From: an uncultured Draconibacterium sp.
GTDB lineage: Bacteria > Bacteroidota > Bacteroidia > Bacteroidales > Prolixibacteraceae
DNA: 64,000 nucleotides
Reading direction: 5' to 3'
NCBI GenBank assembly: GCA_963677455.1
Contig: OY781971.1
Coordinates: 5,889,180-5,953,179 of the forward strand
Shown: piece after piece, positions 12,513 through 17,748 of the stretch
How the letters are laid out: every line of letters begins with the position of its first letter
Numbering within the stretch: position 1 is the stretch's first letter
Program-made: the position numbers and the translations under genes
Notes under the pieces: generated by a model
The model's input: only the letters and a program-made list of their open reading frames with translations
What the model was told of the DNA's origin: nothing
The model's database searches: none

Positions 12513-12625
12513 CTGATAATTAAAAAATAAGCACAAATGTAATAAATTGAGGCGGCGCTGACTGTTCTCACAAATCATTTTTTAATTTTGTGCCTTACTT
12601 TAAAGGGGTTAAAGCAAAAAAGAAC

Positions 12626-14332
12626 ATGACAGAACACAAAGAAAATACAAACGGCGAAACACCGAAGAAGTCGAATTTTATACACGTACAAATTGATGCC
12701 GACCTTGCAGCCGGTAAAAACAATGGGAGAGTGCATACGCGTTTTCCCCCGGAACCAAACGGATATTTGCACATTGGGCATGCCAAATCGATTTGTCTGA
12801 ATTTTGGACTGGCACAAAAGTACGGCGGTAAAACCAACCTTCGTTTCGACGATACCAACCCTTCGAAAGAGGAGACAGAGTATGTAGAGTCAATTATGGC
12901 AGATGTACGTTGGCTGGGATTCGAATGGGAAGGCAGCCCGTATTATGCCTCAGATTTCTTTCCGAAGTTGCATGCTTTTGCTATTCAGTTAATAAAAGAC
13001 GGCTTGGCTTATGTTGATGACCAAAATGCTGAGACAATAAGCAGCCAGAAAGGTACACCACAAAAACCGGGAACGGAAAGCCCTTTCCGTAACCGCACGG
13101 TTGAAGAGAACCTCGATCTTTTTGAACGGATGAGTGCGGGCGAGTTTAACGAAGGCGAAAAAGTGCTGCGTGCAAAAATTAATATGGCATCGCCAAACAT
13201 GCACATGCGCGACCCGATTATTTACCGGATTATGAAAGCGCACCACCACCGCACAGGCGATAAATGGTGTGTGTACCCGATGTACGATTTTGCACATGGA
13301 CAATGTGATTACTGGGAAGGTATTACACATTCTATTTGTACGCTGGAGTTTGAAGTGCATCGTCCGCTGTACGACTGGTTTATCGATCAGTTGAAAGATT
13401 CGGATTACCGTCCGCGCCAGATTGAGTTTGCTCGTTTGAACCTGACATATACAGTAATGAGCAAGCGTAAATTGCTCGAACTGGTAAAAGATAAACACGT
13501 AAACGGTTGGGACGATCCAAGGATGCCCACCATCTCCGGTTTACGCCGCAGAGGATATACCCCGGAATCGATCCGGAATTTCTCGGATAAAATAGGCGTT
13601 ACCAAAGTTGACGGAATGATCGATGTTTCGCTGCTTGAATTCAGCGTTCGTGAACACCTGAATAAAACAGCACAACGTGTAATGGGTGTACTCAATCCGC
13701 TAAAAGTGGTTATTACAAACTATCCGGATGGACAAACTGAAGAACTGGATGCCATAAATAACCCGGAAGACGAATCGATGGGAAAACGCAAAGTGCCATT
13801 TTCGAAAGAACTGTATATTGAGCGTGACGACTTTATGGAAGATCCGCCAAGGAAGTTTTTCCGTTTAGGGCCTGGCCGCGAAGTGCGTTTGCGCTATGCT
13901 TACTTTATTACTTGTAACGAGGTTGTAAAAGATGCTGATGGAAATATTACCGAGTTACTGTGTACCTACGATCCTGCTTCACGAGGTGGAAACTCGCCTG
14001 ATGGCCGGAAAGTGAAAGCTACATTGCATTGGGTTTCGGCCGAACATGCAGTAAAATCGGAAGTACGTTTGTACGACCGGTTGTTTAACGACGAAGATCC
14101 GTCGGGACACAAAGATGTGGATTTCAAAGAATTTATGAATCCTGATTCTTTAAAGGTTTTACCCGAATGTTATGTTGAGCCGTTCGTAAAAGATTCGAAC
14201 CCGCTTGACCATTTTCAATTTGAACGTTTGGGTTACTTCAACATGGATCCGGATTCAACCCCCGAAAAGCCTGTATTTAACCGAACAGTTCCATTGCGAG
14301 ATTCTTGGGCAAAAGCTCAAAACAAGAAATAA
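12626..14332 (+). CDS. glnS: Glutaminyl-tRNA synthetase
   Basis: [36 protein letters not shown]; ATG at 12626; TAATTTTG box at 12583-12590. Confidence 0.97.
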
Positions 14333-14335
14333 ACG

Positions 14336-14364
14336 AAAAGCGGGATTCATTCCCGCTTTTTTTT
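14336..14364 (+). terminator. glnS intrinsic terminator
   Basis: AAAAGCGGGA-TTCAT-TCCCGCTTTT plus T-run. Confidence 0.85.
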
Positions 14365-14410
14365 CATTTTTACCTCCGGCATCGGAAAAGTTCATGGAAT
14401 TATTAATCCT

Positions 14411-14477
14411 TTTACCGACACATAGCCTGCTTTAACCGAATGTTAACTCGTTTCCAGACCAGAGATCATTATATTTG
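14411..14477 (+). promoter_or_regulatory. LytTR-type direct-repeat promoter P1
   Basis: TTTACCGAC-N12-TTAACCGAA-N29-TATATTTG. Confidence 0.75.
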
Positions 14478-14502
14478 ATCTCATAATCTCAAAGTTAGGA
14501 TC

Positions 14503-14877
14503 ATGCAAAAAGTATCACAAGGAAATGACTCGAGAAAAGTTTTGGCCATCGTATTAATTGTGTTTGGCCTCTTGTTGATTTTGAAACGAAGCGGGTCGTT
14601 CTTTTTCAATCCGTTTTTGCATTTTGATGGTGCTTTTGCTCCCTTTAGAGTTGCTTTTCATAACCTGGGTCATGTTTTGTTTTCCTGGCCTTTTATTCTT
14701 ATCCTTGTCGGGCTGGTATTAATGGCCGGAAGACGTTCTGCAGGGCTGGTTTTACTTATCATCGGAGGAATATTTATAATTCCGAAACTGTTCTTTTTGA
14801 CCAGCGCAGCAATGTTGATTTTCTTTCCGATAATATTAATCGGATTAGGAATTGCACTGGTTGCTCGCTTTTTGTAG
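14503..14877 (+). CDS. Small LiaF/LiaI-like membrane protein (TM part only)
   Basis: Four hydrophobic segments; FSWPFILILVG motif also seen in the downstream LiaF-like protein. Confidence 0.72.
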   Translation: MQKVSQGNDSRKVLAIVLIVFGLLLILKRSGSFFFNPFLHFDGAFAPFRVAFHNLGHVLFSWPFILILVGLVLMAGRRSAGLVLLIIGGIFIIPKLFFLTSAAMLIFFPIILIGLGIALVARFL

Positions 14878-14885
14878 GCAACAAC

Positions 14886-14952
14886 TTAACCGACAATAAA
14901 TTGTTGTTTACCGAAATCGAATAAAACAAAATGGCGTTCAATTATAGCTTTG
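14886..14952 (+). promoter_or_regulatory. LytTR-type direct-repeat promoter P2
   Basis: TTAACCGAC-N12-TTTACCGAA-N29-TAGCTTTG; same geometry as P1. Confidence 0.75.
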
Positions 14953-14972
14953 AAACCGTAAAATCGTAAAAA

Positions 14973-15689
14973 ATGGAAAGACCGGATTCATCAAATAAGA
15001 GAGTATATTTTGGGCTGTTTTTAATAGCTATTGGTGCTCTGTGGATTTTAGAACGTCTAAATCTTATTCCTGAGTTTTGGAACGATATTTTTATATCGTG
15101 GCAAATGCTGCTAATTGGTATTGGTATTTTCTCTCTCATAGGTGGAAACAAAACATCAGGTACCGTTTTAATTGTAATTGGTGGCTTTTTTCTGTTGCCC
15201 GAAATCACGCACATTCCTTATGAATTAAGACGTATTGGATGGCCTTTGCTCATTATGGGAATTGGTGTGGTTTTATTGGTTACCCATGGTGGGCGACATA
15301 AAAAAGTAACGTCTCACTTTAATCCGGGGCCACAGCAGAGTCACGATTATTTTGATGATTTTGTAGCTTTTGGTGGCCGCGAAGTGTATGTGGATTCTCA
15401 GAATTTTATGGGAGGAAAAACAAGTTCGGTATTTGGAGGAACAGAATTTGATCTGCGACAGGCTAAGTTGTCTGAAAATGGAGCCGTAATCGACTGCCTG
15501 GCATTGTTTGGCGGATGTGGCTTTAAAGTTCCGCCCGACTGGACTGTAAAAAACGAGGTTACTGCTGTTTTTGGTGCTTTTACCGATAAACGAGGTTCTT
15601 CGTTGAACCATATCGTAACCGATCCTTCAAAGACACTTGTTATAAAAGGTTTTGCAGCCTTTGGAGGCGTTGAGATTAAATACATGTAA
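14973..15689 (+). CDS. LiaF-like protein (4 TM plus C-terminal DUF2154-like domain)
   Basis: ISWQMLLIGIG TM region; FGGREV, SVFGGTEFDLRQA, ALFGGCGFKVPPDW and FGGVEIK repeats. Confidence 0.85.
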   Translation: MERPDSSNKRVYFGLFLIAIGALWILERLNLIPEFWNDIFISWQMLLIGIGIFSLIGGNKTSGTVLIVIGGFFLLPEITHIPYELRRIGWPLLIMGIGVVLLVTHGGRHKKVTSHFNPGPQQSHDYFDDFVAFGGREVYVDSQNFMGGKTSSVFGGTEFDLRQAKLSENGAVIDCLALFGGCGFKVPPDWTVKNEVTAVFGAFTDKRGSSLNHIVTDPSKTLVIKGFAAFGGVEIKYM

Positions 15690-15690
15690 A

Positions 15691-16740
15691 ATGGATTTTC
15701 GCCACCCGTTTTTTTCTAGTTTAAGATTATTAATTGGCTACGGTGCATTCTGGATATTTGCATCTGTAGTGCTAATTTTTATCTCCACCGGAATTAACGA
15801 TGTTCCCGTAGGTGCTGCAATTACCGAAATTAGTACTTCAATGTTGCTGTATGCAGTAATTGGCTCGGCCATCTGGTATGTAATCAAGTACAGTACACTG
15901 GAGGATAACAGTGTTGTTCGCATTATCTCAGCACATCTTATTGCTGCCACTATTATTGTTCTTTTATGGATGTACATTGGCGCTGTATTAGTGAAACTAT
16001 TTCATCCCGGCATTGAAAAATGGCTCGACGAAACAGTAGTAATGCGACTTGTTGGCGGCTACATGATGTACATCGGGTTTGTAATTTTCTTTTATGCCGT
16101 AAATTATTATTTCGCATTTAAGGAGAAATCGAAAAACGAGATCAAGCTAAAAGCGCTGGTAAAAGAAGCCGAACTCCATGCACTGAAATCGCAAATCAAT
16201 CCGCACTTTCTATTTAATAGTCTGAACAGTATATCGTCGCTAACAATGAGCGATCCCGGACGTGCGCAGGAAATGGTAATCAACCTTTCGCAATTAATGC
16301 GTTATTCGTTAAAACACGATCAGGACGAGAAAGTATCGTTCGAACAGGAACTGGAAAATAATAAGTTGTACCTGGCTATCGAGAAGGTTCGTTTTGGGAA
16401 GAAACTGAACCCGGTTTTTGCAATAGAGCCAAGCTGTTTGAAAGCCAGAATTCCGAACATGATTTTGCAGCCTTTGTACGAAAATGCAATAAAATATGGG
16501 GTTTATGAGGCTACTGAACCGGTAGATGTAATAACGCATTGCCGTGCCTTTGATAATATGCTGGAAGTAACGATAAGCAATACTTACGATAAAGATGTGA
16601 TCAGCAAGAAAGGAGAGGGAATTGGCTTGCGAAACATCCGCGATCGCCTGCAGGTACTATACGGAAACCCGCACTTTCTGAAGATTGTAAACAAAGACAA
16701 TGAATTTACTGTAACTTTAACCATTCCTCAAAATCTGTAA
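15691..16740 (+). CDS. LytS/YehU-family sensor histidine kinase
   Basis: AELHALKSQINPHFLFNSLN, ILQPLYENAIKYG, GEGIGLRNI; four N-terminal TM segments; ATG at 15691. Confidence 0.94.
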   Translation: MDFRHPFFSSLRLLIGYGAFWIFASVVLIFISTGINDVPVGAAITEISTSMLLYAVIGSAIWYVIKYSTLEDNSVVRIISAHLIAATIIVLLWMYIGAVLVKLFHPGIEKWLDETVVMRLVGGYMMYIGFVIFFYAVNYYFAFKEKSKNEIKLKALVKEAELHALKSQINPHFLFNSLNSISSLTMSDPGRAQEMVINLSQLMRYSLKHDQDEKVSFEQELENNKLYLAIEKVRFGKKLNPVFAIEPSCLKARIPNMILQPLYENAIKYGVYEATEPVDVITHCRAFDNMLEVTISNTYDKDVISKKGEGIGLRNIRDRLQVLYGNPHFLKIVNKDNEFTVTLTIPQNL

Positions 16741-16743
16741 AAG

Positions 16744-17493
16744 ATGACCGAAAAACTACGTACCATTATTGTTGAAGATGAAGAACTGGCTCGTAACCTG
16801 ATGAAATCTTTTTTGGCAAAAATTGATGTTATCGATTTGATTGCCGAATGTGAGAATGGTTTCGAGGGGGTAAAGATGATTAATGAGTTAAAGCCCGATT
16901 TGGTGTTTTTGGATATTCAGATGCCAAAAATTACCGGTTTCGAAATGTTGGAGCTGCTCGAACATAAACCACAAATTATATTTGCAACAGCTTACGATCA
17001 GTACGCTTTAAAGGCTTTCGACTTTAACGCTGCCGACTACCTGCTGAAACCTTATTCGCAGGATCGTTTAAAAGAAGCGGTGGAAAAAGTTGTTGAGCGT
17101 ATTCAGGCTGAAGGTAAAGAGTCGGATGTTGCAGAAAAAATCAGCGATTTTCCGCGTGAAGAATACCTCGACAGAGTAGTGGTAAAAGACCGCAGCAAAA
17201 TACACATTGCGCCGGTAAGCGCTGTGCGTTACATCGAATCGATGGATGATTATGTTATGATTTACACTACAGAAGGGCGCTGGATGAAACAAAAAACGAT
17301 GAAGTATTTCGAGAGTGCTTTAGATCCTAAGAACTTTGTACGAATTCATCGGTCGTACATTGTTAAAGTTGATGAGATTGCCGAGATTCAACAATATGAG
17401 AAGGAATCGTATGTGGTTATTCTTCACGATAAAACAAAACTTAAAGTGAGTAAAACAGGCTACAAGAATTTAAAAGAGATACTTAGTTTTTAA
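16744..17493 (+). CDS. LytTR-family response regulator
   Basis: Receiver IIVEDEE...FLDIQMP...DYLLKP; LytTR FVRIHRSYIV...LKVSKTGY. Confidence 0.96.
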   Translation: MTEKLRTIIVEDEELARNLMKSFLAKIDVIDLIAECENGFEGVKMINELKPDLVFLDIQMPKITGFEMLELLEHKPQIIFATAYDQYALKAFDFNAADYLLKPYSQDRLKEAVEKVVERIQAEGKESDVAEKISDFPREEYLDRVVVKDRSKIHIAPVSAVRYIESMDDYVMIYTTEGRWMKQKTMKYFESALDPKNFVRIHRSYIVKVDEIAEIQQYEKESYVVILHDKTKLKVSKTGYKNLKEILSF

Positions 17494-17544
17494 GGTTTCT
17501 GCGAATCAAATTTCGATTAACAATTCATATAAACATATTTCTTT

Positions 17545-17571
17545 AAGCCCGGATTTTTATTCGGGCTTTTT
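17545..17571 (+). terminator. Terminator of the LytS/LytTR operon
   Basis: AAGCCCGGA...TTCGGGCTT plus T-run. Confidence 0.8.
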
Positions 17572-17748
17572 GTTTTTTTTATGAATGTGACATTTGTACT
17601 GTTATCTACACGAGATAATTATTATATTCAACGGTTTAATCAAACCTTAACCAATTTAAGAGCCCTGATTGTACTGTTACAGTTAACTGTTGTGGTAATA
17701 AACTTCGTAACTGCTGTGAAAGAAATCTGAATATAAATATTTTATCTT

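Follow-up and report, generated by a model that had tools for sequence, protein, structure and literature searches.

Two predicted promoters, P1 and P2, in the 64,000-nt stretch of DNA analysed here (the window) carry paired 9-bp direct repeats upstream of a Bacteroidota-type -7 box. Both are likely to be activator-dependent sigma-A promoters, with the paired repeats as binding site of the local LytTR response regulator (gene at 16744-17493), which would activate its own operon. The source genome belongs to the Draconibacterium/Maribellus group of the Prolixibacteraceae, and the named species closest to it are Maribellus mangrovi and M. sediminis. It encodes 20 LytTR-domain proteins, so the assignment to the local regulator rests on co-location and co-conservation. 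The kind of switch is well supported, but ordinary.

Paired direct repeats at two promoters

Read directly, the P1 composite is TTTACCGAC-N12-TTAACCGAA-N29-TATATTTG (14411-14477) and the P2 composite is TTAACCGAC-N12-TTTACCGAA-N29-TAGCTTTG (14886-14952), both on the forward strand. The strings, the coordinates and the identical N12/N29 geometry given in a preliminary description of this DNA are exact. At P1, the distal repeat occupies 14411-14419, the proximal repeat 14432-14440, and the -7 box 14470-14477; the respective positions at P2 are 14886-14894, 14907-14915, and 14945-14952. Each is a TTTACCGA pair with its halves 21 bp apart. LytTR operators consist of 9-bp direct repeats with a 12-bp spacer, to which two regulator molecules bind (PMC2766830), or, more broadly, of repeats of 9-11 nt with spacers of 11-13 nt (PMC4847170). 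This layout (repeats of 9-11 bp, spacer of 11-13 bp) is found at both P1 and P2, and the earlier proposal that 9-bp repeats at a 21-bp period represent the LytTR layout agrees with both studies.

The chance expectation for the pair was estimated with 100 dinucleotide-preserving shuffles of the window. The pattern TTWACCGAM-N12-TTWACCGAA has two matches in the window, versus a mean of 0.00 in the shuffles, and P1 and P2 are the sole matches to the strict pair in the complete genome (6,094,908 bp, 39% G+C). The consensus offered for a genome-wide scan is thus searchable and retrieves both promoters, but it is too strict to retrieve anything else. A lone half-site occurs 16 times in the window, versus 8.3 expected; this approximately twofold excess is not a clear enrichment, and the signal therefore lies in the phased pair.

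Both TATATTTG and TAGCTTTG have the form TAnnTTTG, i.e. the -7 box of Bacteroidota sigma-A promoters. In flavobacteria, this box spans -12 to -5 (PMC9723704), which places the distal repeats at about -71 to -63, the proximal repeats at about -50 to -42, and the predicted transcription starts near 14482 (P1) and 14957 (P2). The equal distance of the repeats from the -7 box was described correctly, but the second repeat, which had been placed near the -33 element, would lie just upstream of that place. If the TA is set at -12, the place of the -33 element (-36 to -33) is taken by ACTC in P1 and by ATAA in P2, and neither promoter has the TTTG of this element. The absence of this element, together with the rigid distance between repeats and box, fits what would be expected of an activator-dependent promoter.

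Two further candidate elements were considered and rejected. An Rfam scan of 14300-15050 for an RNA element yielded weak matches (E-values ≥0.24), all of them around the terminator of the upstream gene glnS. NCGAA as a general upstream promoter element was dismissed because the motif shows no enrichment at any of the distances between 20 and 39 nt ahead of TAnnTTTG.

A terminator-bounded unit of four genes

P1 is preceded by glnS (12590-14332, forward strand), which is followed on the same strand by a strong intrinsic terminator (14335-14371, an 11-pair stem at 14335-14361 and then a T-run). The glnS terminator insulates P1 from upstream transcription. The next terminator on the forward strand (17545-17578, a 10-pair stem at 17545-17568 and then a T-run) closes the unit of four genes, and the terminator scan revealed no terminator-like site on this strand from 14371 to 17545. 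The scan also has a promoter part of sigma-70 type, which is uninformative for Bacteroidota.

All four genes are on the forward strand. The first one (14503-14877) encodes a LiaI-like small membrane protein of 124 aa, for which the domain search returned the LiaF-TM/LiaI-LiaF-like transmembrane domain alone (PF22570, 8.1e-10; PF18917, 1.4e-05). The second one (14973-15689) encodes a 238-aa LiaF-like protein whose LiaF-TM domain is clear (PF22570, 7.2e-17, 62.5 bits). Its match to the LiaF-like C-terminal (Toastrack-type) domain PF09922 is weak and below the cut-off (8.8e-05, 22.8 bits; cut-off 29), and that to NF040535 (LiaF_C_term) is far below it (E-value 0.0032, 17.6 bits; cut-off 57). The third gene (15691-16740) encodes a membrane histidine kinase of the LytS/YehU type (PF06580, 3.5e-28); its likely ATG follows 1 nt past the liaF-like stop codon, while the frame is open from 15652, and the 5TM LytS sensor domain was not matched in the domain search. 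The fourth gene (16744-17493) encodes the response regulator, with a receiver domain (PF00072, 5e-24) and a LytTR domain (PF04397, 2.4e-25). The nearest NCBIfam model of the regulator is BtsR, with 194.3 bits, which is below the equivalog cut-off of 246. A PDB sequence search with the regulator returned matches to the receiver domain alone, and none bearing on DNA specificity.

The gaps between the liaF-like and the kinase gene and between the kinase and the regulator gene are 1 nt and 3 nt, respectively, and P2 lies in the 95-nt gap ahead of the liaF-like gene. The regulator gene thus shares a terminator-bounded unit with P1 and P2. As terminators are found only at the ends of the four genes, both promoters should feed the regulator gene: transcripts from P1 should cross all four genes, and P2 is expected to be a second, internal promoter.

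Conservation of P1 and P2 in the Prolixibacteraceae

When 30 loci from the genus are compared, identity is concentrated in an island that comprises the P1 repeats, the TGTWAA that follows them and the -7 box, while the flanks cannot be aligned. The gene upstream of P1 differs between the species at these loci, which indicates that the promoter travels with the operon. In the family, 80 oriented loci contain 72 distal (P1-type) and 18 proximal (P2-type) sites. A TAnnTTTG-like box with at most one mismatch follows the second repeat after 28-30 nt at all distinct family sites (89 of 89), and the distance is 29 nt at 68 of them. For the P1-type, distances of 29, 30, and 28 nt are found at 55, 13, and 3 of 71 distinct sites, and for the P2-type at 13, 3, and 2 of 18 sites, respectively. 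The mean information content of the repeats at the family sites is 1.65-1.96 bits per position, compared with 0.31-0.33 for the 5′-flank.

The P1-type proximal repeat is nearly invariant in the family, and the information content of the P1-type repeats (71 distinct sites) averages 1.71 bits per position for the distal and 1.96 for the proximal one. The family consensus of the distal repeat is TTtACCGAt; the C at its ninth position in the consensus of the preliminary description does not hold, as most relatives have a T. The proximal half is always TTAACCGAA followed by TGTWAA at P1-type sites, and TTTACCGAA at P2-type sites. The extension, which is TGTTAA in the window (14441-14446, directly 3′ of the proximal repeat), is conserved as strongly as the repeat itself at the 71 sites, and it is missing from P2-type sites and from the DUF2807 sites described below. 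It could represent an extended contact of the LytTR protein or a contact of the polymerase.

P1 and P2 are two distinct, separately conserved putative promoters. An origin of P2 as a recent duplicate of P1 was rejected: the spacers and flanks have nothing in common, the proximal halves differ consistently, and P2-type sites are also present in a deep-branching clade. In most relatives, P2 is either absent or decayed. In a tree built from the concatenated sequences of the LiaF-like protein, the kinase, and the regulator, its distribution is patchy and requires at least eight changes, with P2 present in the clade of the window and in the deep-branching clade. P2 is probably ancestral: parsimony favours a history in which a P2-like promoter came first, P1 was gained with the duplicated transmembrane-only gene, and P2 was lost repeatedly. 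P2 had been taken as the promoter through which the regulator controls itself, and it does lie ahead of the regulator operon. However, the absence of P2 from most relatives and of any terminator between the small gene and P2 assign the main autoregulatory role to P1 and an accessory one to P2.

In one metagenome-assembled genome, a distance of only about 170 nt separates P1 from P2, with most of the LiaI-like gene deleted, and in another genome the liaF-like gene has two in-frame stop codons (G006:C8:83039-83747). Both cases are suggestive of an occasional decay of the module.

The module in other families of the order

Eight or more further families of the order have a similar repeat pair 100-130 nt before a liaF-like gene that lies beside genes for a kinase and a LytTR protein. 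Outside the Prolixibacteraceae, the module usually lacks the small gene and has a single repeat pair. The pair has the form TTYACCGNN-N12-YTNNYCGAW in six of these families, and in a seventh the same form is found near the start of the tblastn match. Others have variants such as TTCATCGAT-N12-TTTGTCGAT, or a period of 22 bp. Absence of the motif from orthologous promoters had been named as an outcome that would speak against a LytTR regulon; instead, repeats and -7 box are kept across the family and beyond.

At two loci from other families, the repeat pair and the liaF-like gene are followed by a short protein instead of the kinase, which matches only the LytTR domain (regulator residues ~140-249). 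This kinase-less arrangement resembles the streptococcal "LytTR regulatory systems", which consist of a membrane inhibitor and a LytTR protein (PMC6193735).

A third site upstream of DUF2807 genes

The source genome was searched with a position weight matrix that had been trained on the relatives only. P1 scored 50.8 bits, and the runner-up, TTTACCGAC-N12-TTCGACGAA-N29-TAACTTGC, scored 16.5 bits. This site is located outside of the window (genome C1:4831192-4831258; L050:1409-1475), about 60 nt before two tandem genes for DUF2807 (Toastrack-type) lipoproteins (genome 4831284-4832006 and 4832071-4832775). It is preceded by a terminator, and there is no LytTR gene near this locus in the source genome. 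Orthologous loci in other genomes of the genus have kept the site in 20 of 20 cases, in one of them displaced by about 430 nt upstream. Its form in the genus is TTYACCGRY-N12-TTYAACGAA, again with a TA 29 nt downstream.

The -7 boxes of the DUF2807 promoters are mostly TAnnTTGY, like the SM5 variant of Flavobacterium psychrophilum (PMC9723704). Directly upstream of the DUF2807 promoter, and separated from it by the terminator, is a gene for a secreted protein of 163 aa (genome 4830544-4831035). Judged by eye from its sequence, this may be a periplasmic stress protein similar to Spy/CpxP.

The relaxed pattern TTHACCGRY-N12-TTHRMCGAA has 64 matches in 41 genomes of the genus, compared with two for the reversed pattern, and almost all of the 64 belong to the P1, P2, or DUF2807 class. 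The genome-wide search proposed earlier needed this relaxation to reveal the conserved third site, which the original consensus misses. The DUF2807 gene pair is a probable second target of the LytTR regulator. An improved operator consensus is approximately TTYACCGAY-N12-TTWACCGAA, 28-30 nt before TAnnTTTG, which is concrete and can be tested.

Similar geometry at two other promoters

The 9-N12-9-N28/29-box geometry recurs at two more promoters, which are looser look-alikes with a TTYRTCGAA proximal half and, in most species, no ACCGA in the distal one. One of them (genome C1:5494049-5493980, minus strand) precedes a MacB-type ABC operon, which encodes an ATPase, two permeases, a membrane-fusion protein, and a TolC-like protein (genome 5493939 down to 5488048). 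The form TTYAC....-N12-TTYRTCGAA-N29-[CG]AAnTTTA is present at this promoter in 30 of 30 species of the genus. The second one, the dapB-lepB promoter, reads TTTACCCCA-N12-TTTATCGAA-N28-TAGATTTG (genome C1:3125858-3125925). Its TTYRTCGAA proximal half is kept in place in about 19 of 30 species of the genus, and about 8 also have a TTYAC-type distal half.

The orthologous modules of other families have TTYRTCGAW-like half-sites at their own promoters, so the same regulator may act at the MacB-type and dapB-lepB promoters, and a paralogue or another factor is equally possible. A more far-reaching reading, which we regard as rather doubtful, is that the module is the Bacteroidota counterpart of the Lia envelope-stress system, assembled from LytS/LytTR parts, with a graded regulon that descends from its own operon via the DUF2807 genes to MacAB-TolC-like efflux and dapB-lepB. 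If this were true, one sensor would link membrane stress to efflux, peptidoglycan precursor supply, and protein export.

Alternative explanations and proposed mechanism

The repeats could be without function, either a chance similarity or a repeated or mobile sequence, and the approximately twofold excess of the lone half-site in the window would be compatible with this. However, no pairs are expected from the shuffles, the 64 matches in 41 genomes contrast with two in the control, the repeats are conserved while their flanks are not, and no Rfam match has an E-value <0.2. The conservation data effectively refute an absence of function. It is also improbable, though less so, that the repeats are a real operator with a different binder, i.e. 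one of the 19 other LytTR proteins or an AraC-type tandem-site activator. Such a binder would be in keeping with the 20 LytTR paralogues in the genome, and with the MacB-type ABC and dapB promoters, which share the geometry but differ in their distal half-sites. On the other hand, the ACCGA-type pair tracks the liaF-like/kinase/LytTR module in the family and in at least eight others, whatever the neighbouring genes are, and beyond one conserved extra locus it is missing from the rest of the genome.

Slightly less probable than a different binder is that the local LytTR regulator binds the repeats but represses, or is a dual regulator. LytTR proteins can repress from some positions, as AgrA does at bsaA (PMC4227749). 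However, the predicted sites lie wholly upstream of the core promoter (about -71 to -42) at a rigid distance from the -7 box, and a repressor site does not need a fixed phase with this box. Furthermore, the -33 element is missing, and the arrangement is that of activated LytTR promoters. All of this speaks for activation.

From the observed sequence, geometry, gene content, conservation and rarity of the sites, we infer the signal, the binding, the start sites and the direction of regulation as follows. The PF06580 kinase is probably restrained or informed by the LiaF-like membrane protein, by analogy with LiaF-LiaS, and would phosphorylate the regulator, probably at Asp57, judging from its position in the receiver domain. 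Two regulator molecules would then occupy the two repeats (about -71 to -63 and about -50 to -42) on one face of the DNA. Their role would be to recruit RNA polymerase to promoters without a -33 TTTG element. Transcription from P1 would cover the LiaI-like gene and, by read-through, the liaF-like, kinase, and regulator genes; P2 would be a second regulator-dependent entry point, and the outcome would be positive autoregulation. The tandem DUF2807/Toastrack lipoprotein genes are most likely under the positive control of this regulator as well.

What is predicted is a positive feedback loop and a very small regulon for a LiaF-coupled sensor that an entire order of marine and sediment bacteria has conserved. 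Bacteroidota have many LytTR regulators (20 in the source genome), and in the literature that we searched, none of them had a described operator or regulon. P1 and P2 also offer a clean promoter pair for inducible reporters in poorly tractable organisms. As the mechanism itself is textbook knowledge, the gain is in annotation and testability and not in a new principle.

Comparison with known systems

The half-site described here, TTWACCGAW, differs from that of the AgrA type, e.g. ACAGTTAAG. The overall arrangement is similar: AgrA (agr P2/P3), ComE, PlnC/PlnD, and SilA of Firmicutes likewise use upstream pairs of 9-10 bp direct repeats with a spacing of 11-12 bp, and they activate the operons of their own regulators, as is proposed here (PMC2766830, PMC4227749). 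In contrast to the Firmicutes LytTR promoters, those described here are of the Bacteroidota TAnnTTTG type, and the centre of the proximal repeat is predicted to be near -46, compared with about -60 for AgrA. The operon described here also differs in having no peptide-pheromone gene, and the partner is a LiaF-like membrane protein.

The combination of a LytS-type PF06580 kinase and a LytTR regulator is also found in BtsS/BtsR (YehU/YehT) and YpdA/YpdB of E. coli. The operator of E. coli BtsR in a yjiY oligonucleotide is ACCGCTTA-N13-ACCACTCA (PMC4847170), which has the ACCG core and the 21-bp period also seen here, and the regulator described here is predicted to have very few targets, as BtsR has. 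However, its score of 194.3 bits against the cut-off of 246 leaves the regulator outside of the BtsR equivalog, and the 5TM LytS sensor domain is unmatched in the kinase. The predicted targets are envelope proteins and not a pyruvate transporter, and a LiaF-like partner is present.

The predicted circuit logic is that of LiaFSR of Bacillus subtilis (liaIH-liaGFSR) and VraTSR of Staphylococcus aureus (PMC11237479). In these systems, as predicted here, a LiaI-like gene under a strongly regulator-dependent promoter is followed by genes for a LiaF-like protein, a kinase with a small membrane sensor, and a response regulator, and the autoregulated regulon is tiny and includes Toastrack-type components (PMC11237479). 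LiaI-LiaF-TM/Toastrack proteins beside LytTR genes have so far been noted only in Firmicutes, as a gene-neighbourhood observation (PMC11237479). The differences are that LiaFSR/VraTSR have a LiaS-type kinase, a NarL-type regulator, and an inverted-repeat operator, compared with PF06580, LytTR, and a direct repeat in the present case, and that the operon described here, unlike the Lia system, is without a PspA/LiaH gene. In view of its PF06580 kinase and LytTR regulator, the system would work like the Lia system without being a member of it. Our verdict is that the site is a predicted cognate, self-activating LytTR operator of an already known type.
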